NCBI GenBank assembly: GCA_964631415.1
Contig: CAZVZC010000004.1
Span: 13,814 to 77,813 of the forward strand
Length of the DNA: 64,000 bases
Direction of reading: 5' to 3'
Source: an uncultured archaeon
Lineage (GTDB): Archaea; Asgardarchaeota; Thorarchaeia; Thorarchaeales; Thorarchaeaceae
Positions 1,289 through 63,659 of this stretch are shown piece after piece (positions within the stretch are counted from its first letter, which is position 1; each line of letters opens with the position of its first letter). The notes below the pieces were generated by a model, which saw nothing but the letters and a program-made list of their open reading frames with translations, had not been told where the DNA came from and did not search any database. The position numbers and the translations under genes were made by a program.

Positions 1289-1904
1289 TCGCAGAATCCT
1301 CCGTGATGAGAACCGGATACGTGCTCAGGAAGCGAGCTAGGATCATCCCACCGACAAGACCGATCATGCCGGCTAAAGAGAAGAGGTACACGACCAGTCT
1401 ATCTAGTGGAGTTGGAAAGGCAAGCTGAGAGAATAACAGTCCAAGCACGATGCTAAGGCCAGCCAGACCATAGTACCTCTTTAGACCGGACTTGCTCACA
1501 AGGTACATCGACGGGCCCACAAAGACCAGTCCGAATGCGGCAGGAGCCCAGATGAGCCAAGGGTACAGGTACGTCAGTTCTAGATGGGAAGCAATCACCA
1601 TGAAACCCAGGATTATGACTAGGGGCACCACAGTGAGCAGGAAACCGGTGACTGATAGCTGCTGTTTCTCCTCACGAAGCTTGAACTTGCCAAGCCTGGG
1701 GTATGTATACTGCTCCCTGAACTTCTCGATGGCTGTTGTCTGAAAGACTATGATTATCGCTAGGAAGATGACGAACCTGCCGTCGACGAGCACAACTCCA
1801 GAGAAAGCGAGCATCAGTGCCATCATCATCTCTTGCAGGCCGTCCTTCATCGACTCGCGATGCACATTCTGCTCAAGTTCGAACAAGTCCGTTTCAGTTG
1901 ACAT
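1275..1904 (-). CDS. multi-pass membrane protein, partner of the HTH_34 regulator
   Basis: About 6 hydrophobic segments; YTYPRLG motif; overlaps the regulator start. Confidence 0.8.
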   Translation of the reverse strand: MSTETDLFELEQNVHRESMKDGLQEMMMALMLAFSGVVLVDGRFVIFLAIIIVFQTTAIEKFREQYTYPRLGKFKLREEKQQLSVTGFLLTVVPLVIILGFMVIASHLELTYLYPWLIWAPAAFGLVFVGPSMYLVSKSGLKRYYGLAGLSIVLGLLFSQLAFPTPLDRLVVYLFSLAGMIGLVGGMILARFLSTYPVLITEDSANGVQ

Positions 1905-1939
1905 CTTAGACGCCTCAATACGGAAGCTATACTCTGTGA

Positions 1940-1955
1940 TACAAAGTACTTTGTA
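1940..1955. promoter_or_regulatory. perfect 16-bp palindrome TACAAAGTACTTTGTA, putative operator, next to TATA-like TTATAG (1964-1959, minus)
   Basis: Exact self-complementary sequence 36-51 nt upstream of ATG 1904. Confidence 0.65.
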
Positions 1956-2048
1956 CGTCTATAAGCTTATGCTCTCGAGCAAGCAACTGCAGATTTCGAC
2001 TGCAAGACTACATATTGGCTGAGGGGCGGTTCGGGGGTAGATTGCTTC

Positions 2049-2825
2049 TCACCGTGTCCAATCTTTCAGGGCAACCTTGACCGAACGACGCATTTCTGCT
2101 GCAAACCCAGAACCAGTTTTCCGCAAGTAGACACTCTGTCCTATGTTCTGAGTGTCGCCGTAGAAACCATCTGATATCCCAAAGTGTTCCATAAGCATGG
2201 TATCGAACTGTCGCCCATCTACTCGAGAGTATTTGTCCTTGAAGTATACGAATCGTTCCGGAAAGCGCGGAGATTTCTTGCGTATCGCTTCATGCTTGAT
2301 AGGATATCCGAAACACAGTAGTGCGATCGGGAAGACCCATTTTGGCAGGTCAAACATCTCACGGTGAATCTCTATGTTCTCCATTATGTCACCAATGTAA
2401 CACGAACCTATCCCGAGTGATTCGGCGGCTATCACGGCGTTCTGTGCCGCCACCAACGCATCACAGCAGGCAAGCAACAGGTCAGATTCCTTAGGAGTGG
2501 AGTACTCGATCTGGCGGTCCTCACAGAGCTCAGGGACACGTGAGAACTCAAAGAAGTCATACCATCTCTGTAAATCCGCAAGAAACAGGAGCACCAGAGG
2601 GGCTTTAGCGATGAAGGGCTGGTTGTCACACGTCTTCACCAATCGATCTTTCTTCTGTTGGTCTGCCACTTCAATAATCGAATAATGCATCATGTTCCCT
2701 GCAGTGGGTGCGCGCATGGCGCTGTATATGATCCAGTCTTTGTGCTCTGCACTGATAGGTCGAGAGTCATAGCCTCTCAGGGATTTGCGATTGTCGATTA
2801 CCTTCAGGGTTTCATTCATGAGCAA
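2049..2825 (-). CDS. NfrA/NfsA-like FMN-dependent nitroreductase
   Basis: IDNRKSLRGY, APTAGNMMHYSII, AESLGIGSCYIG, LCFGYP motifs. Confidence 0.9.
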   Translation of the reverse strand: MLMNETLKVIDNRKSLRGYDSRPISAEHKDWIIYSAMRAPTAGNMMHYSIIEVADQQKKDRLVKTCDNQPFIAKAPLVLLFLADLQRWYDFFEFSRVPELCEDRQIEYSTPKESDLLLACCDALVAAQNAVIAAESLGIGSCYIGDIMENIEIHREMFDLPKWVFPIALLCFGYPIKHEAIRKKSPRFPERFVYFKDKYSRVDGRQFDTMLMEHFGISDGFYGDTQNIGQSVYLRKTGSGFAAEMRRSVKVALKDWTR

Positions 2826-2902
2826 GCTCTTGTTGGGCTTTCACTTAACAATTATCTCTCTGCGTTCTGAACCATTCGTCAGAACATCCCACCGTCGTCT
2901 GC

Positions 2903-3823
2903 CTAGAGCCGTTTCCTGTAGGTATTGATGAAGGGAGCTGCAGCGACTCCGAGGCGAGAGAACAAATCATTGTACGCCTTGACATTGTCGGGCAACAAGG
3001 TCATGCGAAATCTCTTGAGCCCGTCCTTTGCCCCCGCCTCAATCAGCCTTCTGATGATCCTTCCGCCCACATCAGACAGGTCGACACCCGGAACCATCAT
3101 GACCCTGAGAACTCGCGCCACATCAGGCTCATTGTCTGGAACGGTCATAGCGGAAGCGGCTACTGTCTTGTTGTCCTTACGAAACACCGCCACTCTCCTG
3201 AAGTATGAATCCTTGGCGCCCGACTCATACTGATCCATGAGCAGTTTCACTCGTTCGACCGGGAATCCCAACCCGGCCAGCATTGTACCGAAGACGTCCC
3301 GGTCTTTGCCTCGCTCGTACTGTTCAACACCTCCTGCAGCGGGAAGATGCGAGAAGTCGATGGACGAGATGTTCTTCTCCGCAAGGTACTGTGAAACTCC
3401 AGCATCCTCGAACTTGTACTGCTTGAGAAGAGTTTCCCAGTTGCCCCATCCCTTTCCGACTTCTGTTGTGACAACTGATATGCCTCTCTCCTTGAGAACC
3501 TTGAGAGCGTGGTCCATGAGTGCCTTCTGTGCCCCCTCGTGCCCTTTCTTGACGAGTGGGAGCCTCATGACTGCCGTCTTCTCAGGGGTACCACTTACCA
3601 AGGATGCAGTCAGATAGCCCACCAGCGCACCTTTCACCAATGCATAGAATCTCGTGCTGGGGTCAAAACCTAGACCCGAGTAGGTCTTCCTGAGCTCTTC
3701 GGCGGGAGTCTGCCGGTACTGAGTCCAGTGCTTCGTGGCCTCGCTTCCGATTCTCGCCTGTTCCTCGATGAACTTCTCTTCGTAAGTCTTGATCTCGTAG
3801 GATGCTGTCTTTCGACTTGCCAT
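2903..3823 (-). CDS. tandem GNAT-fold acetyltransferase-like protein; start likely ATG 3823 or 3832 rather than 3931
   Basis: Two GNAT-like halves (GALVGYLTA...RLPLVKKGHEGAQKALMDHALKVLKERG; VAASAM...VGGRIIRRLIEAGAKDG). Confidence 0.65.
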   Translation of the reverse strand: MASRKTASYEIKTYEEKFIEEQARIGSEATKHWTQYRQTPAEELRKTYSGLGFDPSTRFYALVKGALVGYLTASLVSGTPEKTAVMRLPLVKKGHEGAQKALMDHALKVLKERGISVVTTEVGKGWGNWETLLKQYKFEDAGVSQYLAEKNISSIDFSHLPAAGGVEQYERGKDRDVFGTMLAGLGFPVERVKLLMDQYESGAKDSYFRRVAVFRKDNKTVAASAMTVPDNEPDVARVLRVMMVPGVDLSDVGGRIIRRLIEAGAKDGLKRFRMTLLPDNVKAYNDLFSRLGVAAAPFINTYRKRL

Positions 3824-6315: not shown

Positions 6316-7527
6316 TTACTCACTCCGCAGGTCCTCCTGCTGACCAACAGACAAGGACTGTGCCATTCTGGAGAAGAGTGGCATGACAACGAAGATGGAA
6401 CCTATGACTACTATCGCCGTCAGCGTAAGAAAGTCCGTTCCAACGTATCCCGAGGCAAAAGCCTCCCGTGCGATGATAAGTGACATCTCTCCTCTCACAG
6501 CCAAGCCGAGTGTCGAACTCAGCAGGATTCTGCCATGCAGCCCCGCGGCCCGTCCCCCGGCTAGACCTCCGCCCAGCCTTGCACCAATAGCCACGACCAG
6601 GATGACGAAGGCCGTTGGCAGAAGGAGTGGAATATCGAAGGGGTTGATCGCCAGCCCAATACTGGCGAAGAAGACAGCTGTAAAGATGTCCTTCGTCATT
6701 CCCAGCTGTTTTTCGAGATTCTCGCCCACAGGCTTGTAGGGAATGATGGCGCCCACAATGAAAGCTCCTGTGACAGCGGCTAAGCCCACGGAGGTTGCCG
6801 CGAACGCGAAGACCAATCCCAGCCCAAGGAGCACTGGGAAGAGTGTTTCGTCAGACAGCCGACCCTCAAGCCGAACTATTACACGAGGCAGGAGTTTTCC
6901 TCCGAGGAGAACCGACCCGACTATGAATGCGGTCGAGATCAGACCGACACCAAGCAGATTGACCGGCACCAGGACACCACTGGCCATGACAGCTAGCGCA
7001 ACGGTCAGAATGATGAGACCCTCCACATCGTCAAGTACGCATGCAGTAAGAAGGGTTGAACCGTCTTGGGTTCTTACTAGCTTGTTACTGCTCAACAAGG
7101 CTGCCACTACACTTGTTCCGCTCGGTGAGATTACAGCTCCGAGCAAGAAAGATGTGTTGCTCGGGAAACCCAGAGCCAATCCAACACCGTATCCGCAGAC
7201 TAGTGAGAGCAACACTCCGACGGTCGTCAGGAGGAAAGCTCTTCTTCCCATTTTCCAGAAGGCGGATACTTCGAACTCTAGTCCAGTGGTAAAGAGAAGC
7301 AGGACAACGCCTAGAACAGCAAGGAAATTGATGGTGGCAAGATCCGTGACAAGACCAAGTCCTCCAGGGCCACCAATGAATAGCCCGACCAAGATGGCCC
7401 CAATCAGGCCGGGGAGGTTCAGCCGCTTGAACACCCCCGATACGATGGAACAGACAATTATCAACAGTCCCACTTGGTAGAGTAGGAAGACGGTTTGTTC
7501 TCCCGCCATGGGTTGGCAGCGGCTCAC
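6316..7527 (-). CDS. CPA2-family cation:proton antiporter (KefB/NapA-like)
   Basis: About 12 TM segments; LLFTTGLE, SPSGTSVV, ACVLDDVEG, VRGEMSLIIA motifs. Confidence 0.9.
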   Translation of the reverse strand: MSRCQPMAGEQTVFLLYQVGLLIIVCSIVSGVFKRLNLPGLIGAILVGLFIGGPGGLGLVTDLATINFLAVLGVVLLLFTTGLEFEVSAFWKMGRRAFLLTTVGVLLSLVCGYGVGLALGFPSNTSFLLGAVISPSGTSVVAALLSSNKLVRTQDGSTLLTACVLDDVEGLIILTVALAVMASGVLVPVNLLGVGLISTAFIVGSVLLGGKLLPRVIVRLEGRLSDETLFPVLLGLGLVFAFAATSVGLAAVTGAFIVGAIIPYKPVGENLEKQLGMTKDIFTAVFFASIGLAINPFDIPLLLPTAFVILVVAIGARLGGGLAGGRAAGLHGRILLSSTLGLAVRGEMSLIIAREAFASGYVGTDFLTLTAIVVIGSIFVVMPLFSRMAQSLSVGQQEDLRSE

Positions 7528-7623
7528 CTGGTGCTTAAGGCCCTTTCTGGAAGTCGAGATGCTCTCCTAATTCCAGTATACAAAGGTGTATATGGCACGG
7601 CTCGTTAACTATAGTGAACACAT

Positions 7624-7866
7624 ATGAAGGTAATGAGCAAGACTACGAATCTGTCTCCGAAGGAGATCATTGACAGGGCAGAGGCGTTCTTCAATGGGAA
7701 GTATGGACTGAAAATGCTTGAGTCCAGCGAATCCTGTTGTGCATATTTCCAGAGTGATATCGGTTTTGTTTCACTTCGGATTGTGACCTTAGGCAAACGT
7801 AATGAAGCCATACTGGAAACTCGTGAATGGGACTATCAGATTCAGGAGTTTCTGAAAACGCTCTAG
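7624..7866 (+). CDS. small conserved hypothetical protein with vicinal Cys-Cys and ETREWD motif
   Basis: SPKEIIDRAEAFF...ESCCAYFQSDIGFV...LETREWDYQIQEFL; protein-like composition, upstream TATA-like sequence. Confidence 0.7.
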   Translation: MKVMSKTTNLSPKEIIDRAEAFFNGKYGLKMLESSESCCAYFQSDIGFVSLRIVTLGKRNEAILETREWDYQIQEFLKTL

Positions 7867-50863: not shown

Positions 50864-50977
50864 AGGACTACTGTGCCATTGTATCCACGGCCAGTCTTCT
50901 TCTGACATCAAGGTTCGTGCTCAGGACAAGCAAGAGGGTCATATTCATCTAGGTGAAGCAGCTGATTCTGCTTGGCT

Positions 50978-51601
50978 ATGTTGTTTCTTCTTTCTGTCAT
51001 AGGGATGATAGTTGCGGTTCCGATTCACTTCTTGTCGGTCGAACATTCAAGGCTGGAGAAGAAGTACGGGCAAAAGAAGGGAAGAAAAGTTGGAAGCATA
51101 TTGGGCATGATATCAGGATGGGGTTTCTTCGGATTCTGGGTGGGAATATGGGTATCTTCTCAGCCGAAGTTCAGTATCCCGGTTCTTCCAGAATTCGTCG
51201 TGTTTATCCCGATTAGTGGCTTGGCAGTCCCCATGGTCCACTTCTTCTTTGGGCTGCCTCTCGTCTTAGTGGGAGCTTGGTTGGGAATCGCAGGCGTCAA
51301 GGAGATCACGCTCAAAGTCGCCGAAACTCACAGAGCAGAGAGAGTCGTGAAGACGGGGGTCTACTCAACAATTAGGCACCCTCAATACCTAGGCGGCGTT
51401 GTTTCTCACTTGGGAATCATACTCATCCTGTGTGCTTGGTATGCTCTTCTTGTGACGCCGCTGATTGTTTCACTGAACTATGCACTTACCTGGAAAGAAG
51501 AGAAGGAGCTCGCGAGGGAGTTCGGCAGTGAATACATAGAGTATCAGAGGAGCGTGCCAATGATGGTGCCCCGAGTCGGGGGTCGCAAGGCAGATCATTG
51601 A
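50978..51601 (+). CDS. isoprenylcysteine carboxyl methyltransferase / PEMT family membrane methyltransferase
   Basis: VVKTGVYSTIRHPQYLG, EEKELAREFGSEYIEYQRSVP. Confidence 0.9.
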   Translation: MLFLLSVIGMIVAVPIHFLSVEHSRLEKKYGQKKGRKVGSILGMISGWGFFGFWVGIWVSSQPKFSIPVLPEFVVFIPISGLAVPMVHFFFGLPLVLVGAWLGIAGVKEITLKVAETHRAERVVKTGVYSTIRHPQYLGGVVSHLGIILILCAWYALLVTPLIVSLNYALTWKEEKELAREFGSEYIEYQRSVPMMVPRVGGRKADH

Positions 51602-55538: not shown

Positions 55539-56531
55539 TTACGACCTGAAGAACCTGTATGCCACGGCAACGATTAGCACTACTGTCAATGCTATACCGG
55601 CAGTCAGCCAGAAGCTGCCATCGAGGCCGCTGCCATCTGGTGTCGTGCTCGTTACTGAGGAGGTCGTGCCATTTGCGTGTTGCGGGACCCATCCGCTCAG
55701 AACTGCAGCCAACCACCAGAATGCATGGCCTTTCTGCTCGCAGCTCGTGTATGTTGTGTGGCCCGCTTGGTCGCCATGGAAGTCCTCGTGCTCGACCGGA
55801 ATATAGTAGTCCCCATACGCATAGGTGCTCTGTTCACCGTTGCTCCATGCATCGAGATCTTCGAAGTCAAAGAGCACCTTGTCATTTGCTATGCAATACT
55901 GGCGAATCTGCTCGTTCCTCTGCCACCTGTTGTAGCCTTCATCTCCGGTGGACTGAGCGTTGCATGTCATGTACACAAAGATTACACTGGGATTCGCCGT
56001 TTCCAGTGAAGACATCGCATCAAGATAGGCTTGGGTTTCAGCCTCACCATACCAGTACAGCTGAGTGCACCATGACCATATGGACACGGTCAGTGTGGGG
56101 TTCTCATCAAGTGTGTTCTGAGTGATGGCAAGACCATCGGGTGTTTCCCAGTATAGGTCTGGCGTGATGTATGACTCAGGGGGATTGCCGTCAAGCACGC
56201 ACAAAGCACCGGACTCGGTTGGCAGGTATCGATCGCCCTGAGCCTGACTGAAAGTAGAGTTAGCATCCTCAATCAAGTCAAGGCCCGTGGTGATCTGACT
56301 GCCATGGCTTGTGTGTGCATAGTGAACTTTCACATCTGACTGAGCGGCCTCTATCCACTCTGCAGGAATCGCATTCAAGTCTGTGCAGGTGTGGTCTACG
56401 ATGAGTCCACTCGGCCAGTCAGCAGAAACCCTGCCGGACGTTGTATAAAGGATTTCAGAAGAGGCCGAGTAAACCTGTAGGGACAGGAAAAAGACAGACA
56501 ACAGTAAGGCAAGACTGGCGTGGCGCGGCAT
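55539..56531 (-). CDS. secreted, C-terminally anchored protein, possibly SGNH-hydrolase-like
   Basis: Signal peptide; HYAHTSHGSQ, WSWC, VYMT, LFDFEDLD, DQAGH...QKGHAFWWL; Ser/Thr linker, TM, RFFRS tail. Confidence 0.7.
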   Translation of the reverse strand: MPRHASLALLLSVFFLSLQVYSASSEILYTTSGRVSADWPSGLIVDHTCTDLNAIPAEWIEAAQSDVKVHYAHTSHGSQITTGLDLIEDANSTFSQAQGDRYLPTESGALCVLDGNPPESYITPDLYWETPDGLAITQNTLDENPTLTVSIWSWCTQLYWYGEAETQAYLDAMSSLETANPSVIFVYMTCNAQSTGDEGYNRWQRNEQIRQYCIANDKVLFDFEDLDAWSNGEQSTYAYGDYYIPVEHEDFHGDQAGHTTYTSCEQKGHAFWWLAAVLSGWVPQHANGTTSSVTSTTPDGSGLDGSFWLTAGIALTVVLIVAVAYRFFRS

Positions 56532-56560: not shown

Positions 56561-56648
56561 CACTGGTTAATAGTAAAAGCCTTTTCTCGTGCCAAGTTGC
56601 GACCCACACCGATATAACCGCAATCACGCCCTCCGTGTTCAAGAAGTC

Positions 56649-57467
56649 ATGAGTGAGCGGACTGAAACTGTGTTCGTATCATGTTCCACAATCGGCGGCA
56701 TAAGATCAGGAGCAGTGCCAGAGCTGTTCCTAATAGACCAAGTCCGCACGCTGCTAAGAGTCCATGACGCTGGATATCATCACGTCGAAATGATCTACAC
56801 CAACCAACCAGAATGGGTTGGCAAGACAATAATGGAAGCGTTGGGTGAGCTCTCGCTTGAACCATACTCAATACACCTGCCGAAGTTCATCTTCTCCTAC
56901 AGTGACGACGAGTTCACGGCGTTCACTGCCGCAGCATATCCCTTCATCGAGAAACTGGGGATTCAGGTCGCTGTCCTACACCCGCCCGACCCATCACAGA
57001 TCATGAACACAGACTGGTCGAAGAGATTCGACACACTCCTAGAACTCTCGGAGAAGGCTCACTGCAGACTGACGCTCGAAAACATGCCGTATCTTCCCAA
57101 TGTGGACCAGTTCATCTTGGATCACATATCAAAGAACGTTTCCACCTCCCTTGGCGTCACAATCGACCTAGAGTACATGAGATACAACGGGTCTGACATA
57201 GGCGAACTGATCAAGATGTTTGGAGAACGTCTGTTGAATGTTCACTTCCGTGACGGGGACGGTAGCCTCGTGGACAGTGAGGGGCACAGGCGATACCTGC
57301 TTCCTGGCTCAGGAAACATCGACCTGCTTGGTGTACTCCGAATGCTCCATCGTTCAGGATACAGTGGAGTACTGACCGTTGAAGTTTCACACAGACAGAG
57401 GGACAACATCACCAAAGCCAAGGCGTTTCTTGAGGACAGTCTCAGAAGCATTGGAGTTCAGCTGTGA
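56649..57467 (+). CDS. sugar phosphate isomerase/epimerase (AP-endonuclease-2 TIM barrel)
   Basis: YSIHLP, AVLHP, LTLENMP, TIDLEY, NVHFRDG, LPGSGNID, LTVE. Confidence 0.88.
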   Translation: MSERTETVFVSCSTIGGIRSGAVPELFLIDQVRTLLRVHDAGYHHVEMIYTNQPEWVGKTIMEALGELSLEPYSIHLPKFIFSYSDDEFTAFTAAAYPFIEKLGIQVAVLHPPDPSQIMNTDWSKRFDTLLELSEKAHCRLTLENMPYLPNVDQFILDHISKNVSTSLGVTIDLEYMRYNGSDIGELIKMFGERLLNVHFRDGDGSLVDSEGHRRYLLPGSGNIDLLGVLRMLHRSGYSGVLTVEVSHRQRDNITKAKAFLEDSLRSIGVQL

Positions 57468-57495: not shown

Positions 57496-59193
57496 TTAGG
57501 CAGACTCCCTCACGCGGTTGATTCGAATGCATACTGCTGACAGGACAAAGACTGCACTCCCACCTAGGAACAGCGAGGTGTACAGTATCCCTGAGATTCG
57601 CCCGCTGACATCACCAGGAGCCATTTGAGGGAACACCGTGAAGATTGGGTCGTGAACGATTGAGTACCCGTCCCACTCTCCATAGCACGAGCTGTAGTAG
57701 TACGAACCGGACATCATCCCGGTTGATCCTGTGGCAACTCCGCTCAAAGAGGGGGTTGCTTCTGCAGCAAACGCATAGAGGTACACGGGCATGATTGCTG
57801 TGCCCACATCGTGTGTAGAGTTGTCCTTTCTCCAGACATAGGTGCCGCCAAACTCAACAGATGCCAGCGGGTTCTCACCTTCATTGAAGGAGATTCCCCC
57901 ACTGATGACGGGTTCTGCCATGTTGACGGTGGTGGGGGCTATTGGCTGATCATCTCCTCTGACGAGAAGATCAGAGCTCGAGAAGGAGCTCCAGTAGTTC
58001 AACATCAGGCTGAGCCCCTCGGCCTGCGGCAGCATGCCGCCTGTGACCGGTTCTCTAAAGTCACCGATGAGCTGGTCAATCTTCAGTACTGCCGCTTTCT
58101 CATTGACCTCAAAGCGATAAGTCATCTTGAGACTGTCAACCTTAGCCGGGATTGTTTCTGGTTCAGCAAATGGCTCACCACCAGGATAGTCGTATGAGGC
58201 GACCATGTACGGATAACGAGAGTTGAGGACGCCCTCAATGTCAACGACCTCGGTGCTCCATTCTATCTGTCCTTGTGCGTTCACGAACGGAGTCTGGACA
58301 CTGCCCACTGCTGCACTCTGTGCATAGAAGTCATACTTCAGTTCGGAGTTGGTGTAGTTGACCACATAGTACGACCAATCAATGTGACTGTCGTTATCAA
58401 AGTCGTACTCGACCAGGTCATAGGCAATGTCTACTACTCCGTCATCATCTGTGTCATTGAATACGCTTAGCCCTGAGAAGTAGTGCTGCATCCACTGTGT
58501 CTGGTCGTCAGCCGTTGTCATTTCGCTCACATCATATCCAAAACCGCAGTAGTACCAGTCCTGAGCATCACTGTATGATCCGTTCATGAAGGATGCCCAC
58601 TGATACTCCTCCTTCAGGAGTGGAACAATCAGACTAGGGTCTACGACACTCCAATTCTCATCCATCCATGTGTACTGGGCGCTGTACGAGTAGCTGTAGT
58701 TGTAGGTGCTATAGTAGAACGAAGAATAGACAAGGACCTCGTCTCCTGTGAGCGCATCGGCAGTCGGCCACCAGTACATCATCCAGATGTCACCGGCTGT
58801 TGGCTGAGTAGATAGCCATGAGATGAAGCTACCATCAGGATCTAGCACTATCGTCACAAGTAGATTCGAAAAAGACCAATCGGAAGTCGAGTTGTATTCG
58901 GCGTCTTCAAGGATCCAGTAAGTGTTGTTGTTTCTGTCCTCCACCATGTAGTAGTACTCGTAGTCGTACTCATTGCGCATCTCTACAGGAACTGGCCCCA
59001 TATCGTCACTGGATGCGTTCCACCATTGCCAGTAGACATAGACACTGGGCAGCATCTCATCAAAGGGTACGGTGGTCTGTATTGGCGTGGTGATTGGGCC
59101 CGTCTGCATGGCAGCGACCGGACCGACACCAAGCAACAACAGGGCGGCCAGTAGCCCTATTGTAGTGGCGCATTGCCGTGCTCGATCGTTCAT
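57496..59193 (-). CDS. large acidic Tyr/Trp-rich secreted surface protein with C-terminal TM anchor
   Basis: Signal peptide; many N-x-S/T sequons; IVHDPIF before the TM; RINRVRE tail. Confidence 0.8.
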   Translation of the reverse strand: MNDRARQCATTIGLLAALLLLGVGPVAAMQTGPITTPIQTTVPFDEMLPSVYVYWQWWNASSDDMGPVPVEMRNEYDYEYYYMVEDRNNNTYWILEDAEYNSTSDWSFSNLLVTIVLDPDGSFISWLSTQPTAGDIWMMYWWPTADALTGDEVLVYSSFYYSTYNYSYSYSAQYTWMDENWSVVDPSLIVPLLKEEYQWASFMNGSYSDAQDWYYCGFGYDVSEMTTADDQTQWMQHYFSGLSVFNDTDDDGVVDIAYDLVEYDFDNDSHIDWSYYVVNYTNSELKYDFYAQSAAVGSVQTPFVNAQGQIEWSTEVVDIEGVLNSRYPYMVASYDYPGGEPFAEPETIPAKVDSLKMTYRFEVNEKAAVLKIDQLIGDFREPVTGGMLPQAEGLSLMLNYWSSFSSSDLLVRGDDQPIAPTTVNMAEPVISGGISFNEGENPLASVEFGGTYVWRKDNSTHDVGTAIMPVYLYAFAAEATPSLSGVATGSTGMMSGSYYYSSCYGEWDGYSIVHDPIFTVFPQMAPGDVSGRISGILYTSLFLGGSAVFVLSAVCIRINRVRESA

Positions 59194-59368: not shown

Positions 59369-59893
59369 TCATCGTGGGACATTGCGTACCAGAACGACTG
59401 TCTTGGTCCTGCCGTGGGCCTCTCGACTGATAAGCGATTTTCTCTCCAGTGAAGACAGGATGACACTCAATGTTGACTTGCTCAGGCCCGATACTCTTCT
59501 GAGCTCGTCTTGAGCCATCTCACCGCCGTTCTCCTCCAATCGGTTGATCACTCGTCTTTCGGTGCTACTCAGAGTGATCACTAGGACCTTTTCGCTCTCG
59601 GATACAGGGACTTGAGTTTCAGTGCCTGCCACCAAGCCCTCTAAGCGAGAAACCCTTCTCTGAAGCCTCAGTACTACTAGGACTGCCACGTTCACAATCA
59701 GTACTAAGGATATCACGAGTGCGATTGTGGTGGCAAGGAACACTATCTCTTTGGCGATGGGCATCGCCGCCATCCAGACCCCTACAGAAGCAGACAGTAT
59801 CACTACAGAGATGCCAACGAGGACTGCATCGATCTTCGCATCCCGGTCTTCATGTCCGTCCATCTGTGGCACCTTCTGATGGTAGTCTGTCAC
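59369..59893 (-). CDS. membrane-anchored winged-helix regulator (2 TM + coiled coil + MarR-like wHTH)
   Basis: TM pair; LSSTERRVINRLEENGGEMAQDELRRVSGLSKSTLSVILSSLERKSLISREAHGRTKTV. Confidence 0.85.
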   Translation of the reverse strand: MTDYHQKVPQMDGHEDRDAKIDAVLVGISVVILSASVGVWMAAMPIAKEIVFLATTIALVISLVLIVNVAVLVVLRLQRRVSRLEGLVAGTETQVPVSESEKVLVITLSSTERRVINRLEENGGEMAQDELRRVSGLSKSTLSVILSSLERKSLISREAHGRTKTVVLVRNVPR

Positions 59894-60143
59894 CTCTTGC
59901 TACCGTAAAAGCAGATTGAGGCGTCCTAGTCAATCAACAGATTCTCACGTCTTCTTCCAGACGCTTTGACTGAAGATATGTGCAGGAAACCCGCCAGTGC
60001 TGATGAAGTTGACGCCGACAGAGACCTGACACAGAGCGGCCCAGAGTAGACATACATGGTACATTGCACAGGATTGCTGACAGTCTGCTATCATAGAACA
60101 AAGAATAATACGGTCCCTCCACTTTCCAGCTAATGTCATGTGA

Positions 60144-61184
60144 ATGGGGCTTGGTGAGATGCTGAAGGAGATATACCTTATCAGCCATGGTTTGCTGCTG
60201 TTCCACTACAACAGGGACAGGAGTCAGAGCGACACAGACGAGGCAGTCCTCTCATCGGGTCTCATGAGTGCCATGCGCGATTTCAGTGAACAAACGAGAT
60301 CAGACGTACTTCAGTCGTTCTCCACTGAGAACGAGTACTTCCTATTCCAACCATGCAAGGACATGAATCGGATCATTGTTGGGGTGTTTGACCGCCGTGC
60401 ACCTGAGGAACTGGCAAGGGACATTCTGGATCGGATACAACGGCTCATCGCGGCCACAAGAATGCCTGAAACCATAGGGGTCCAGTTGAAACCCGAGGAG
60501 AAGGATGATCTCAGGAGCAGAATCGACAAGATACTGGATCAGACGTTCAACACTGGGCAGATGGCAGCATTTGTGGAGAAGCAGATGAGCGGAAGAACAG
60601 ACATTCCACTCGCTTTTGTCTTGGATTTGGATGAAAAGAAAGTCCTAGCTCATTTCGCAAGGCCACATCCTCTCTTCAAGGACACTCAAGTCAGGGATCT
60701 TCTGCTAGTTCACACGACAATCTGCACGACACTATCCAAGCTTGGCATTGGTGAGAAGTACAGCTATTTCTCGGTGCAGTCACCAGAGTACTCCATTGCT
60801 ACCTGTTGGAGTGGACGGCTGCTGAGCATGGCCACCGGAGCTATGCAGGCCCGAAGAGAAGACGTGAGGCAGGCTGCCGCGCAGATCTGCTTTCAAGACA
60901 CTGAGGAACCCGGAGTTAGCTCTCCAGATGCCCCGCGACTTCTCAATAAGTCTAGCCTCCTGGAGAACGGAGTGGTTTCTCACCAGTCTGGCGAATTCCT
61001 TCCCGCTATCAGTGGAGTGTTGCTGTCGACACTCGCCAACAACTTGGATGGTTTCTTCAAGTCCATAACCCGGCGCACCTTCCAAGGATTCGAGATTGCC
61101 AGTCGCAATGGCAGCCCAAAGAAACTGGTAGTGACCCGAAAGGAGTCCGAGAAGACAATGACAGTCGAAGTATATCAACAGTGA
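60144..61184 (+). CDS. longin-domain + roadblock/profilin-like multi-domain protein (Asgard eukaryotic-signature type)
   Basis: N-terminal LKEIYLISHGLLLFHY...VLSSGLMSAMRDFSEQ...beta-beta-beta-helix-helix longin pattern; second domain helix-beta-beta-helix-beta-beta-beta-helix. Confidence 0.7.
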   Translation: MGLGEMLKEIYLISHGLLLFHYNRDRSQSDTDEAVLSSGLMSAMRDFSEQTRSDVLQSFSTENEYFLFQPCKDMNRIIVGVFDRRAPEELARDILDRIQRLIAATRMPETIGVQLKPEEKDDLRSRIDKILDQTFNTGQMAAFVEKQMSGRTDIPLAFVLDLDEKKVLAHFARPHPLFKDTQVRDLLLVHTTICTTLSKLGIGEKYSYFSVQSPEYSIATCWSGRLLSMATGAMQARREDVRQAAAQICFQDTEEPGVSSPDAPRLLNKSSLLENGVVSHQSGEFLPAISGVLLSTLANNLDGFFKSITRRTFQGFEIASRNGSPKKLVVTRKESEKTMTVEVYQQ

Positions 61185-61256
61185 TGAACTCGGTCCAGAC
61201 AGTAAGCGATTTTAGATGCGGGTCCACACTACTCAACCGCTAGAGTTGGGAACACA

Positions 61257-61994
61257 ATGAGCACTGCTAGTATGAATAAGTCCGCGACAAGACGGTCAGA
61301 GCTTGATGCTGTCTTTCTATACATGGGAATACTGGACGCGTACGAGGCAGTTGGCATCGAGCTCATCGGTTCAAAGGTCTTAGACGAACAGGTGCTGCCG
61401 CGCATGGCCTATTATGTGAAGGAATTCTTGCCAGAGCTGTCGTCGGCCAAGGGAAGCTCTGAGGACCTGGTGCCAGAACTGAGAGTATTCCTGAAGGACT
61501 TCCGTGAGAGAGTACAGAAGGCGAAACAGACGGGGTCGGCTCAGGGCTTGTCAATGGAGGACATCTGGAAGCTGAGAGCAGCTGTCTTTGGGTTCGAAAG
61601 TGTCTTCATCAGTATCTTGGGTGACGCCGCAATCAAGAACTACGTCTTCGTGAGAATGTCTGACATTCTGTCAGCCTACTTGCCCGAGAATCTCCTCGAT
61701 CCTAAGATTTCACTTCTCCAGAAGCTAGAAGCCTATGCGAAGTACATCAAGGAACATGGATTCGTTGGGTACTCTAGGGTTTCGGTTGACAGACAGGGCA
61801 TAACCGTCGCTGCAAACAACTGTGCCTTTGCCAGAATCCACGATTCGGAGGCATACAGAAACCTGAACGTGAGGTTCTGTCCGTGGGGGATGATTGCTTC
61901 TGCGATAATAGCCGGGCACGAGGGCAAGGGATCACTGTTGAAGTCGAGTACTTTCACAACAAGGGGGAGTCTAAGCAAGATATCGTCCAATTAG
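61257..61994 (+). CDS. V4R / Bet3(TRAPP) / H-NOX-superfamily-like protein with a duplicated N-terminal helical segment
   Basis: C-terminal GFVGYSRV...ITVAANNCAFA...FCPWGMIASAII...STFTTRGSLSKI; internal 32-aa gap-free repeat. Confidence 0.65.
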   Translation: MSTASMNKSATRRSELDAVFLYMGILDAYEAVGIELIGSKVLDEQVLPRMAYYVKEFLPELSSAKGSSEDLVPELRVFLKDFRERVQKAKQTGSAQGLSMEDIWKLRAAVFGFESVFISILGDAAIKNYVFVRMSDILSAYLPENLLDPKISLLQKLEAYAKYIKEHGFVGYSRVSVDRQGITVAANNCAFARIHDSEAYRNLNVRFCPWGMIASAIIAGHEGKGSLLKSSTFTTRGSLSKISSN

Positions 61995-62009
61995 AAAGGA
62001 GGAGGAGTC

Positions 62010-62450
62010 ATGCAAGTCCAACTCACACCATTCGAGATAGCATCAATCGTGATGGTGGCAGAAACTGTGGTCGTTGTCGGGCTCTTGATCGGATGGTACT
62101 TCGGATCCAGACGAATGAAATTCACCATCCATCACGGGGCGGTCTACTCAGTGGTGCTAGTTCATCTTCTGACAGTAAGCATCTGGATGATCCCACAGGC
62201 ATTGCTGCTTGCCTCCTCTGGTTTGTTCAGCGACCCACTAGGCAACTGGTACCAGATCGCACATGATATGATTGGGCTACTGGCCATAGGCCTTGGGTCG
62301 ATTTTGGTACTTGTCTTCATTACCAGAAGAGGCATGCCGCTCAAGCTTCTGAAGAAGACCCGTCCTCTGATGATAGTCACGTTGGTGATGTGGATACTTT
62401 CGTTCGGGCTTGGTATAGTGAGCTATGTCGCCAACCGTCTGTTGGGTTAG
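62010..62450 (+). CDS. 4-TM membrane protein (DUF420-like)
   Basis: GGAGG RBS; HHGAVY, HDMIG intramembrane His; LWILSFGLGIVSY. Confidence 0.65.
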   Translation: MQVQLTPFEIASIVMVAETVVVVGLLIGWYFGSRRMKFTIHHGAVYSVVLVHLLTVSIWMIPQALLLASSGLFSDPLGNWYQIAHDMIGLLAIGLGSILVLVFITRRGMPLKLLKKTRPLMIVTLVMWILSFGLGIVSYVANRLLG

Positions 62451-62548
62451 TCTTGTTCCAACGCATGGCTCAGGCAATGGGTTCAGGAACTAATGCAAAG
62501 AGGTAAATCACCAAGCACACAGTACGTCGTTGAACAGAGACGGTTGAT

Positions 62549-62926
62549 GTGACAGAGCAAGTGAGTGGGCAGCTGTCGAAGGAGGAACTCCGGCAGCTTA
62601 GAAGACTAAAGATGGTCAAGGAGGCCCTTGATGAGTTGAAGAGGAGGGGAATCTCTGCGGACATACCCGTGTGCCCTGTGTGCAAGAGCCCTCGCATTGT
62701 TCACATGACATCGTTTCAAGACCTGGGGTACATTGGGAGCTTTCAGCCGGCTTATTATTGCCTTGACTGTGGTTGGTATGGGAGAACTCTGACCATCATG
62801 ACCAACCGGCCTGAGGATGATGCTGTGTCCGAGGATCTCAGAGAGGCATTCCCGTCATTCCGAGAGGAAACTCCAGAAGAAGAAGAGTATCCCGAGGACG
62901 AGGAAGAGCGCTCTTGGGAATCCTAG
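62549..62926 (+). CDS. Zn-ribbon protein with acidic tail
   Basis: CPVCKS...YYCLDCGWYG; EEEEYPEDEEE tail. Confidence 0.75.
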   Translation: MTEQVSGQLSKEELRQLRRLKMVKEALDELKRRGISADIPVCPVCKSPRIVHMTSFQDLGYIGSFQPAYYCLDCGWYGRTLTIMTNRPEDDAVSEDLREAFPSFREETPEEEEYPEDEEERSWES

Positions 62927-62984: not shown

Positions 62985-63659
62985 CTACTTCCGCGTTCCG
63001 CTTGCGTACCAATCACATAAAGTAGACAGGAAACAATCTGAGCACAGAGGATTGCGGGCCCGACAGACTTGCCTGCCATGGAGAACTAGATTGTGGTTGA
63101 GGGAGTACAGGCAATGCGCGGGTATAATGCTCTCAAGCATAGGCTGTGCATTCTCACGCGAAACCTTGAGAGGGACCAGACCAAGTCGTCTTGTCACACG
63201 CCAGACGTGAGTGTCGACAGGCAGCGTCGGCCGTCCGAATGAGAAGAGTAGCACAATCGCTGCGGTCTTAGGTCCAACCCCATGCAGCGATGTGAGCCAT
63301 TGAGTCGCATCCTCAGTAGTCATGTCACTAAACAACGAGAGATCCAGACGTCCCACTCTTCGCTGTATCTCCGAAAGCGCGGCCTTGATACGTTTCGCCT
63401 TCAGCTTGTAGTACCCTGACGACCTTATCACTTGTGCTATTTCATCCTCTGGTGCTGACATCACTTCTTCCCAAGTCGGGTAGGTCGCCCTCAGCTTGTC
63501 ATACGCCCTCTGAGAATTCACATCAGCTGTGTTCTGACTCAGTATCGTCATAACGAGCTCATCGATTGGCGGACTGGCTTGCTCTACAACTGTGTTGCCG
63601 TAGTTATGCTGTAACAGCTTGCATATGTGAGAAGCCTTCTTCCGTGCTGCAACATCCAA
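62985..63659 (-). CDS. nth: endonuclease III (HhH-GPD, 4Fe-4S)
   Basis: ILSQNT, LHGVGPKTA (Lys), VDTHV (Asp), CRARNPLCSDCFLSTLC. Confidence 0.92.
   Translation of the reverse strand: MDVAARKKASHICKLLQHNYGNTVVEQASPPIDELVMTILSQNTADVNSQRAYDKLRATYPTWEEVMSAPEDEIAQVIRSSGYYKLKAKRIKAALSEIQRRVGRLDLSLFSDMTTEDATQWLTSLHGVGPKTAAIVLLFSFGRPTLPVDTHVWRVTRRLGLVPLKVSRENAQPMLESIIPAHCLYSLNHNLVLHGRQVCRARNPLCSDCFLSTLCDWYASGTRK

Follow-up and report, generated by a model that had tools for sequence, protein, structure and literature searches.

Do a longin-type protein, a Bet3-like protein, and a small membrane protein encoded side by side in an Asgard archaeon represent an early form of the eukaryotic TRAPP complex, or a regulator of another kind? 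The question arises from a 64,000-nt stretch of contig CAZVZC010000004.1 (the window), in which positions 60144-62926 carry four plus-strand open reading frames (ORFs) in a row, here called g1, g2, g3, and g4, with gaps of 72, 15, and 98 nt. A sequence-only reading of this DNA had described that gene order in a presumed Asgard genome and had assigned a longin/roadblock fold to g1, a V4R/Bet3-type fold to g2, four transmembrane segments with conserved His to g3, and a Cys4 zinc ribbon with an acidic tail to g4. These assignments held up: the ORF listing returned the same genes and gaps, AlphaFold2 models and Foldseek searches agreed with the folds of g1 and g2, hydropathy and a family alignment did so for g3, and the Cys motifs and tail composition did so for g4. 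The source is Asgard and Thor-like, with the closest matches to the window's proteins coming from metagenome-assembled genomes (MAGs) of Thorarchaeota. Our data show that g1, g2, and g3 are a conserved, Asgard-restricted three-gene cassette, and suggest that it may encode a small-GTPase regulatory platform whose central protein is built like the eukaryotic tri-longin guanine nucleotide exchange factors for Rab GTPases (RabGEFs) rather than like the longins of TRAPP.

A three-gene cassette conserved across Asgard archaea

All four ORFs are genuine genes, as homologues were found for each. Within the cassette, g1 (60144-61184, plus strand; 346 aa as the ORF was called) encodes the protein with three longin-type domains, g2 (61257-61994, plus strand; 245 aa) an N-terminal four-helix region followed by a C-terminal Bet3/V4R-type domain, and g3 (62010-62450, plus strand; 146 aa) the protein with four transmembrane segments. 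To place them in context, one genome per species (GTDB) was scanned with a g2 profile, which gave 36 loci; six-frame ORFs were called in each and searched with g1, g2, and g3 profiles and with g4. Genes g1 and g2 were adjacent and co-oriented in 36/36 loci, and g3 was next on the same strand in 33/36, the exceptions being L013, where the contig ends; L037, where g2 contains a run of N; and L038, where g3 is inverted yet adjacent. An apparent truncation of g2 in L037 was rejected as the effect of this run of N, not biology. The three genes were contiguous in every one of the 36 loci with sufficient sequence, in genomes labeled Thor, Hermod, Hod, Heimdall, Kari, Freya, and "Promethearchaeota", and chance adjacency was rejected on these counts.

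The genes flanking the cassette are wholly different between Asgard classes; therefore, selection keeps exactly g1, g2, and g3 together. In almost all of these related loci, g2 and g3 lie -8 to +19 nt apart, a spacing compatible with their translation from a single mRNA. In the window, where gene junctions were read by eye, a purine-rich, Shine-Dalgarno-like stretch, AAGGAGGAGGAG (61996..62007, plus strand), lies 1 nt past the g2 stop and directly 5' of the g3 ATG, placing a GGAGG motif ahead of g3. No fusions among g1, g2, and g3 were found among the homologue matches, and none of the three reaches a Pfam or NCBIfam cut-off. One Thor-type MAG (L029) carries a 193-aa minus-strand ORF (7265-7846), which may be an insertion, in a gap of ~790 nt between g1 and g2. 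The sequence-only reading had treated all four genes as a single unit and looked to synteny for its test; across Asgard classes synteny is strongly kept for g1-g2-g3, while g4 stands beside the cassette in Thor-type loci only.

Three longin-type domains in a single chain

Word-index searches returned 57 homologues of g1 (36-59% identity, E down to 5e-131), and an exhaustive profile search of 1.84 billion representative proteins found only 58 that reach E 0.001, nearly all of the full-length ones being ~340 aa long. The true start is probably Met6 (nt 60159), because homologues begin at MLKE and GGTGA precedes this codon.

In an AlphaFold2 model from a 41-sequence alignment (predicted local distance difference test [pLDDT] 85; predicted template modeling score [pTM] 0.74), g1 folds as three ββ-α-βββ units at residues 7-104, 156-248, and 265-345, with boundaries from the DSSP secondary-structure assignment. 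Longin domain 1 (LD1; aa 7-104, 60162..60455, plus strand) comprises strands 7-14 and 17-23, helix 38-51, strands 58-60/64-70 and 76-83, and a closing helix 88-104 (ββ-α-βββ-α); it is the most conserved domain of g1, with invariant columns in the motifs SSGL...A..DFS and STENEYF. Two linker helices, 117-135 and 137-148 (aa 117-148, 60492..60587, plus strand), lead to LD2 (aa 156-248, 60609..60887, plus strand; pLDDT 87-97), again ββ-α-βββ-α, with strands 156-161 and 166-172, helix 180-200, strands 205-212, 217-223, and 226-231, and helix 238-248. LD3 (aa 265-345, 60936..61178, plus strand; pLDDT 85-97) has strands 265-272 and 278-283, helix 290-309, and strands 315-321, 326-332, and 339-345, and is lamtor-like in having no C-terminal helix. 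Comparing the three domains with each other by hhalign gave no similarity, so that the triplication is visible in structure only.

The Mon1-Ccz1 structure provides the closest point of reference: its LD1 is a canonical longin (ββαβββαα), its LD2 a roadblock (αββαβββα), and its LD3 of lamtor type, with LD3 completed by a helix from the LD1-LD2 linker and an αX-βX linker joining the LD2 and LD3 sheets (PMC8833172). In eukaryotic tri-longin subunits the three domains are set out as a triangle, and dimers form through the LD1-LD1 and LD3-LD3 sheets. The LD2 of g1 becomes roadblock-type (α-ββ-α-βββ-α) if helix 137-148 is counted in, and the order of subtypes fits if helix 117-135 is given to LD1 and helix 137-148 to LD2, an assignment made by DSSP alone. 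These two helices, with no additional strand called between LD1 and LD2, may correspond in the model to the last helix of LD1 or αX and to the helix that opens a roadblock-type LD2. We infer from the model that g1 has the order longin, roadblock-like, lamtor-like, which is the order found in eukaryotic tri-longin RabGEF subunits.

When the model was compared with the PDB using Foldseek, the first 20 places were all taken by chains of MON1-CCZ1, Fuzzy-Inturned/CPLANE, and BLOC-3 entries (E 2.8e-10 to 4.3e-5, probability 0.98-1.0), in near end-to-end alignments of 390-470 columns. The next matches were phytochrome PAS-GAF-PHY modules, also full-length (E 8e-5 to 1e-3, probability 0.4-0.8). Further down, at ~1e-3, came profilin and single-domain longin/roadblock proteins (TRAPP Bet5-type, MP1-p14, and Ragulator), with target-normalized template modeling (TM) scores of 0.53-0.66; the TRAPP Bet5-type chains match one g1 domain only (E ~7e-4, target-normalized TM ~0.54).

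Sequence comparison ties LD1 to longin proteins of other Asgard archaea. The weak tail of the exhaustive g1 search consists of Asgard single-longin proteins matching LD1, and LD1 aligns at 33% identity over 80 residues (hhalign, probability 92%, E 5e-7) with the N-terminal domain of P0232, a longin-roadblock-Ras-family GTPase fusion with a CxxC-rich insert, indicating that the two longins are homologous. A profile of LD1 and its relatives matched TRAPPC1/Bet5 best among PDB sequences (E 0.026, whole domain), then MglB (0.09-0.14) and Ykt6. For 6 of 10 remote LD1 relatives, the top Pfam match is Intu_longin_1, Fuz_longin_1, or Longin, and the single-domain relative P0231 from Candidatus Harpocratesius scores 27.1 bits with Intu_longin_1 against a cut-off of 23.7. 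Two proteins from metagenome contigs that are probably Asgard (P0222 and P0223) carry an LD1-like longin fused directly to a C-terminal region with multiple transmembrane segments that is unrelated to g3.

Like Mon1, Ccz1, Fuzzy, Inturned, HPS1, and HPS4, g1 is therefore a single chain with three consecutive longin-type domains; it also shares with these subunits a helical insert between LD1 and LD2, an LD1 that is the best conserved domain, and an LD3 without the final helix. Unlike them, it is much shorter (~340 aa) and free of the long eukaryotic loops, it is encoded by a single gene rather than as one of a heterodimer pair, and it is operonic with a Bet3/V4R-fold protein and a four-transmembrane protein, partners that tri-longin RabGEFs, to our knowledge, do not have. 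Single domains of g1 also resemble LAMTOR2 or MP1-p14 (TM 0.60-0.66), and MglB, as noted above, matches the LD1 profile. Ragulator (LAMTOR1-5) and MglB regulate small GTPases as membrane-tethered platforms built from roadblock/lamtor-type domains, but their subunits are separate, single-domain proteins with no Bet3-fold partner, and the anchor of Ragulator is a lipidated subunit, not an integral membrane protein. The architecture of g1 is the one predicted for the Mon1/Ccz1 precursor, which Sanchez-Pulido and Ponting envisaged as a single homodimer with three longin domains (PMC7703760).

A Bet3/V4R-fold protein and a four-transmembrane protein

The second protein of the cassette is highly conserved, with 145 homologues at 50-73% identity and a mean column identity of 60%; where named, they are annotated as "hypothetical protein" in Asgard MAGs (Thor, Hod, Heimdall, Freya, and others), and the database version of g2 starts 5 codons downstream of the called start. 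Its AlphaFold2 model (pLDDT 78.7, pTM 0.78) has an N-terminal region (aa 3-121) of four helices (3-36, 41-57, 68-92, and 100-121) and a C-terminal domain (aa 123-245) in which helices 123-141 and 153-166, two strands, helices 192-201 and 209-222, and two further strands follow one another. This α-α-ββ-α-α-ββ order is the layout of TRAPPC3/V4R proteins (Tran et al., PMC10933270), and it marks residues 123-245 as a Bet3/V4R-type domain. In Foldseek, the best matches of g2 were the phenol-sensor domains of MopR, PoxR, and DmpR (E 0.04-0.3, probability 0.9-0.99, target-normalized TM 0.34-0.45, or 0.21 for full-length DmpR), followed by BcsD (E from 0.15, probability 0.2-0.96, target-normalized TM ~0.5), the Drosophila TRAPP core chain 7b6d_G (E 0.6, probability 0.69, target-normalized TM 0.50), and TRAPPC3 (6aq3; E 1.1, probability 0.44, target-normalized TM 0.43). 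Judged from the model, the V4R/Bet3 fold call appears sound, with V4R sensors ranking above TRAPP subunits.

Four residues of g2, Cys189, His195, Cys208, and His221 (codons 61821-23, 61839-41, 61878-80, and 61917-19, plus strand), are invariant in 37 sequences from several Asgard classes; in the model one ends β2, one lies in helix C, and the other two mark the ends of helix D. Thor-TRAPPC3 and PoxR have their Zn sites in the corresponding region (PMC10933270), and by analogy the four may be metal ligands. Thor-TRAPPC3 and other Asgard V4R/TRAPPC3 proteins are the obvious relatives, being Asgard proteins of the same fold (Tran et al. 2024, PMC10933270; PDB 7YH2), and in proteins of the Thor-TRAPPC3 type a Cys-based Zn site tethers the β-sheet to helix D and ligand binding has been proposed (PMC10933270). 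Neither g2 nor its 37 homologues matched Pfam (V4R and TRAPP included), and no PDB sequence match was obtained, 7YH2 included, even with a profile; g2 is therefore not the crystallized Thor-TRAPPC3. It differs in having Cys2His2 rather than Cys4 and an additional helical domain; its conservation is also much broader and stronger, and its gene is fixed in an operon. The bacterial V4R sensors (XylR, DmpR, MopR, and PoxR) pair a zinc site with a hydrophobic ligand pocket, but g2 lacks their AAA+ or HTH output domains and superposes on them with TM of only 0.3-0.45.

The third protein, g3, has 42 homologues, all Asgard where named. Hydropathy and loop charge give four hydrophobic segments with K/R-rich loops at residues 33-42 and 106-119, from which both termini are predicted to lie outside and the K/R-rich loops in the cytoplasm. 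Family alignments show His41, Met60, His85, Gly89, Met121, and Gly135 to be invariant and Glu18, Arg34, His42, Trp59, Pro62, and Arg118 nearly so. In the predicted topology, His41, His42, Met121, Arg34, and Arg118 would be at the cytoplasmic face and Trp59, Met60, Pro62, and His85 on the outer side; the conserved loops in the cytoplasm would make a suitable docking site for g1 and g2.

A possible small-GTPase regulatory platform

What could these three proteins do together? We favor a small-GTPase regulatory platform, with a probability of roughly 40%, because characterized longin/roadblock platforms regulate small GTPases and LD1 has a homologue fused to a Ras-family GTPase. Every characterized platform of this kind known to us (MglB, Ragulator, TRAPP, and Mon1-Ccz1) binds and regulates a small GTPase. 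By analogy, we infer that g1, g2, and g3 form a complex and that it acts on a GTPase. The three would assemble at the cytoplasmic face of the membrane, with g3 as the anchor, g1 as a scaffold, probably homodimeric and so a six-longin platform, and g2 as a metal- or ligand-binding partner; the assembly would recruit and switch one of the many Asgard Rab/Arf/Rag-like GTPases, encoded elsewhere in the genome, either as an exchange factor or as a GTPase-activating protein, and a small molecule or metal bound by g2 could control this activity. An accessory or adaptor role would fall to g4 in genomes of the Thor type. The longin-TRAPPC3 fusion described in Heimdall by Tran et al. (PMC10933270) also counts in favor of this reading.

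Several observations weigh against a GTPase platform. A motif scan for P-loop, DxxG, and NKxD found no small GTPase near the cassette in the window or in most loci. Despite its leading Foldseek ranks, g1 superposes on the tri-longin chains with a global TM of only 0.19-0.29 and a root mean square deviation of ~19 Å, and thus either the three domains are placed differently from those of the eukaryotic triangle or the monomer model missed their arrangement. Searches with phmmer and hmmsearch, using single sequences, profiles, all members, and the consensus, gave no significant Pfam, NCBIfam, or PDB sequence match for g1 or g2; none of the Pfam families, Fuz_longin_1-3, Intu_longin_1-3, and Mon1 included, matched g1 at E<=1, and its 41 family members yielded a single weak match to Fuz_longin_1 (0.079) and one to Fuz_longin_3 (0.24). 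The sequence link from g1 to the longin families therefore appears real but transitive, passing through other Asgard proteins, and the Foldseek E-values of g2, at 0.04 and above, are marginal. The remaining points concern g3, whose His/Met pairs at the two membrane faces look like metal ligands and whose distant similarities and neighbors in some genomes point toward metal handling.

Alternatives to a GTPase platform

Those features of g3 belong to the reading that we rank second, and which we regard as possible though on balance doubtful: that the cassette traffics or senses a metal or cofactor and involves no GTPase. Here g3, as a CtaM/DUF420-like protein, would use its His/Met sites to move or bind copper or some other metal or cofactor, with g2 as a cytoplasmic Cys2His2 partner and g1 as a scaffold or regulator. 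In aerobic Hodarchaeales the system would serve assembly of an adjacent heme-copper oxidase, and anaerobic lineages would use it for other metalloproteins or for detoxification. Consistent with this, the invariant His41, His85, Met60, and Met121 of g3 are paired at two membrane faces, and 4 of 25 g3 members give full-length matches to DUF420 (PF04238)/CtaM, the best at E 3.8e-4. The invariant Cys2His2 of g2 also fits, since proteins of the V4R/TRAPPC3 fold bind Zn and small hydrophobic ligands (PMC10933270), while DUF420/CtaM is needed for heme-copper oxidase function and has been proposed to be a copper exporter (PMC13344008). However, every DUF420 score falls below the Pfam cut-off of 30.5 bits (the best in the detailed table is 18.7), and neither g3 of the window nor the family consensus gave a match. 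Weak matches between proteins with four transmembrane segments are often compositional.

Gene neighborhoods bear on the same possibility. Three Hodarchaeales loci carry, after g3 and on the strand of the cassette, DOMON-COX3-COX2-COX1-COX4_pro-SCO1/SenC genes (L005 7364-12738; L034 9304-14159; L044 8442-13895), which together make up a complete heme-copper oxidase operon; this is the lineage reportedly placed closest to eukaryotes by Eme et al. in 2023. A DOMON-cytochrome b561 gene is the convergent neighbor of the cassette in one distant lineage, and a CopA-like HMA/YHS P-type ATPase is encoded 2 kb upstream of it in Freyarchaeia (complete Freyarchaeum genome). The oxidase adjacency is, however, limited to one Hodarchaeales clade: COX/SCO neighbors are absent from the window, the Thor and Freya loci, the other Hod loci (L033 and L042), and the Heimdall/Kari loci examined. 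Thus, g3 resembles CtaM/DUF420 in being a small four-transmembrane protein with weak full-length profile matches and, in that clade, COX/SCO1 neighbors, but it also occurs in lineages with no oxidase genes nearby and is always coupled to g1 and g2. Metal handling would moreover leave the three-longin scaffold without a role, and we know of no part played by the longin fold in it.

The sequence-only reading had proposed a proto-TRAPP, in which a TRAPP-like core made of a Bet5/Trs23/Trs20-like longin and a Bet3-family subunit sits on a membrane anchor, together with a zinc-ribbon subunit. As in the TRAPP core, longin-fold and Bet3-fold proteins occur in one presumed unit; the synteny of their genes is very strong, TRAPPC1/Bet5 heads the PDB matches of the LD1-family profile, TRAPP longin chains match one g1 domain, and g2 superposes on TRAPP-domain subunits, namely 7b6d_G and TRAPPC3. 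The folds and the synteny on which that proposal was based thus stand, but its identification of g1 as a single TRAPP-type longin subunit does not, for g1 fuses three longin-type domains in one chain, in an architecture like that of Mon1/Ccz1 rather than Bet5/Trs23, and the Foldseek E-values of tri-longin RabGEFs are about six orders of magnitude better than those of TRAPP chains. The equation of g2 with a TRAPP-core Bet3 was right as to fold, although V4R phenol sensors (probability 0.98-0.99) match it at least as well as TRAPP subunits do (0.44-0.69), and the N-terminal four-helix domain and Cys2His2 set it apart from the latter. Neither g1 nor g2 matches Pfam TRAPP, Sybindin, or Sedlin; a dedicated integral membrane partner is present, unlike in TRAPP; and the presumed zinc-ribbon subunit, g4, was not found beside the cassette outside Thor-type loci. 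We therefore consider a TRAPP-like core unlikely.

Least probable of all is GTPase-free signaling, in which the g1 domains would be PAS/GAF-like sensor or scaffold modules that, with a ligand-binding g2 and the membrane protein g3, pass on a signal from the membrane or from a small molecule, for example to the divergently transcribed, membrane-anchored winged-helix regulator of Thor genomes: it draws on the phytochrome matches of g1, on the use of V4R domains as sensors in XylR/DmpR-type regulators, and on the opposite-strand gene with a transmembrane segment and a MarR/DUF7343 domain upstream of g1 in the window and in L001/L002, but the phytochrome matches have lower probability (0.4-0.8 vs 1.0) and much weaker E than tri-longin proteins, the regulator gene is not in the neighborhood outside Thor, and the sequence links of LD1 go to longin and MglB proteins, not to PAS/GAF.

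The accessory gene g4 and neighboring genes

Downstream of the cassette in the window lies g4 (62549-62926, plus strand; 125 aa, GTG start), which encodes an N-terminal helix, a CPVC...CLDC zinc ribbon with weak zinc-ribbon Pfam matches, and a C-terminal tail with 17 D/E against 3 K/R. Its orthologue in L001, from a complete Thorarchaeota genome (CP070761), is 67% identical. The gene is present in 16/36 loci, all Thor-type, standing after g3 in 13 and before g1 in 3, and none was found beside the cassette in the loci of other types; a Freyarchaeial gene in the corresponding position was considered and rejected as an unrelated coiled-coil protein. Since its position varies within Thor-type loci, g4 is a lineage-specific accessory gene, mobile yet attached to the cassette.

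The g1-g4 region of the window is uniform in base composition, and no paralogues of the cassette genes were found within the window. It is bounded upstream by the membrane-anchored winged-helix (MarR/DUF7343) gene on the opposite strand (59369-59893) and downstream by a convergent gene for an endonuclease III-type glycosylase (62985-63659). Antisense ORFs of 50-130 aa overlap g1-g4 (for example 59934-60206, minus strand) and are presumably spurious because the plus-strand frames are so strongly conserved.

Other genes in the vicinity of the cassette are recorded here as observations. Two proteins encoded upstream on the minus strand of the window, of 565 aa (57496-59193) and 330 aa (55539-56531), are predicted to be secreted or membrane-anchored, each with a signal-like N-terminus and a C-terminal transmembrane segment, and neither has a Pfam match; L001 encodes a 579-aa protein of similar size in the corresponding position (1721-3460), also with no Pfam match. 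L001 (794-1654) encodes an arrestin-like protein (Arrestin_N, 286 aa) ~3 kb upstream of its cassette. No arrestin-like counterpart was found at the corresponding position of the window, which is occupied by a xylose-isomerase-like TIM-barrel gene (56589-57467). At 50972-51601 (plus strand), 9 kb upstream, the window encodes a 209-aa membrane protein of the PEMT/ICMT family (isoprenylcysteine carboxyl methyltransferase-like), the family whose eukaryotic enzymes process prenylated small GTPases but which is also common in prokaryotes. An ORF of 319-320 aa with P-loop, DxxG, and NKxD motifs lies ~6.5 kb upstream of g1 in L010, L011, L013, L015, L016, and L024, all of one Thor subclade. In the complete Freyarchaeum genome (L003 8838-10382, the same as L031 10838-12382), a 514-aa protein encoded 1.6 kb downstream of the cassette exceeds the Pfam cut-offs for Sec23_trunk and Sec23_BS and is accordingly Sec23/24-like.

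Implications for Asgard biology

Tri-longin RabGEFs (Mon1-Ccz1, BLOC-3, and CPLANE) govern the identity of endosomes and lysosomes and the formation of cilia, and in the searchable literature they are treated as eukaryote-only. In a literature search of incomplete coverage, we found no article linking Asgard archaea to tri-longin proteins or Mon1/Ccz1-type GEFs, and no description of the g1-g2-g3 cassette. Liu et al. placed three Roadblock/longin families among the Asgard core genes and described other operons; g1 may be a member of one of these families.

The compact archaeal protein described here has the three-domain plan of those RabGEFs and is conserved from Thor-type to Hodarchaeales, Heimdall-, and Kari-labeled genomes. 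Together, g1-g3 are a candidate forerunner of eukaryotic trafficking regulators. A bolder proposal, which we advance tentatively and think rather unlikely to be right, is that g1 is a living representative of the single homodimeric tri-longin precursor predicted for all Mon1-Ccz1, BLOC-3, and Fuzzy-Inturned RabGEFs, working alongside a Bet3-fold protein and a membrane protein from an obligate Asgard operon; if true, tri-longin GEFs and TRAPP would both trace to one membrane-anchored archaeal module. Were the cassette instead to traffic metals, its link between a longin scaffold and the handling of copper or cofactors would likewise be new. Here, as rarely happens, the partners of Asgard trafficking-like proteins may be read from an operon, and the cassette offers a concrete, expressible system of three or four proteins for asking how longin-based GTPase regulators worked before eukaryotes.

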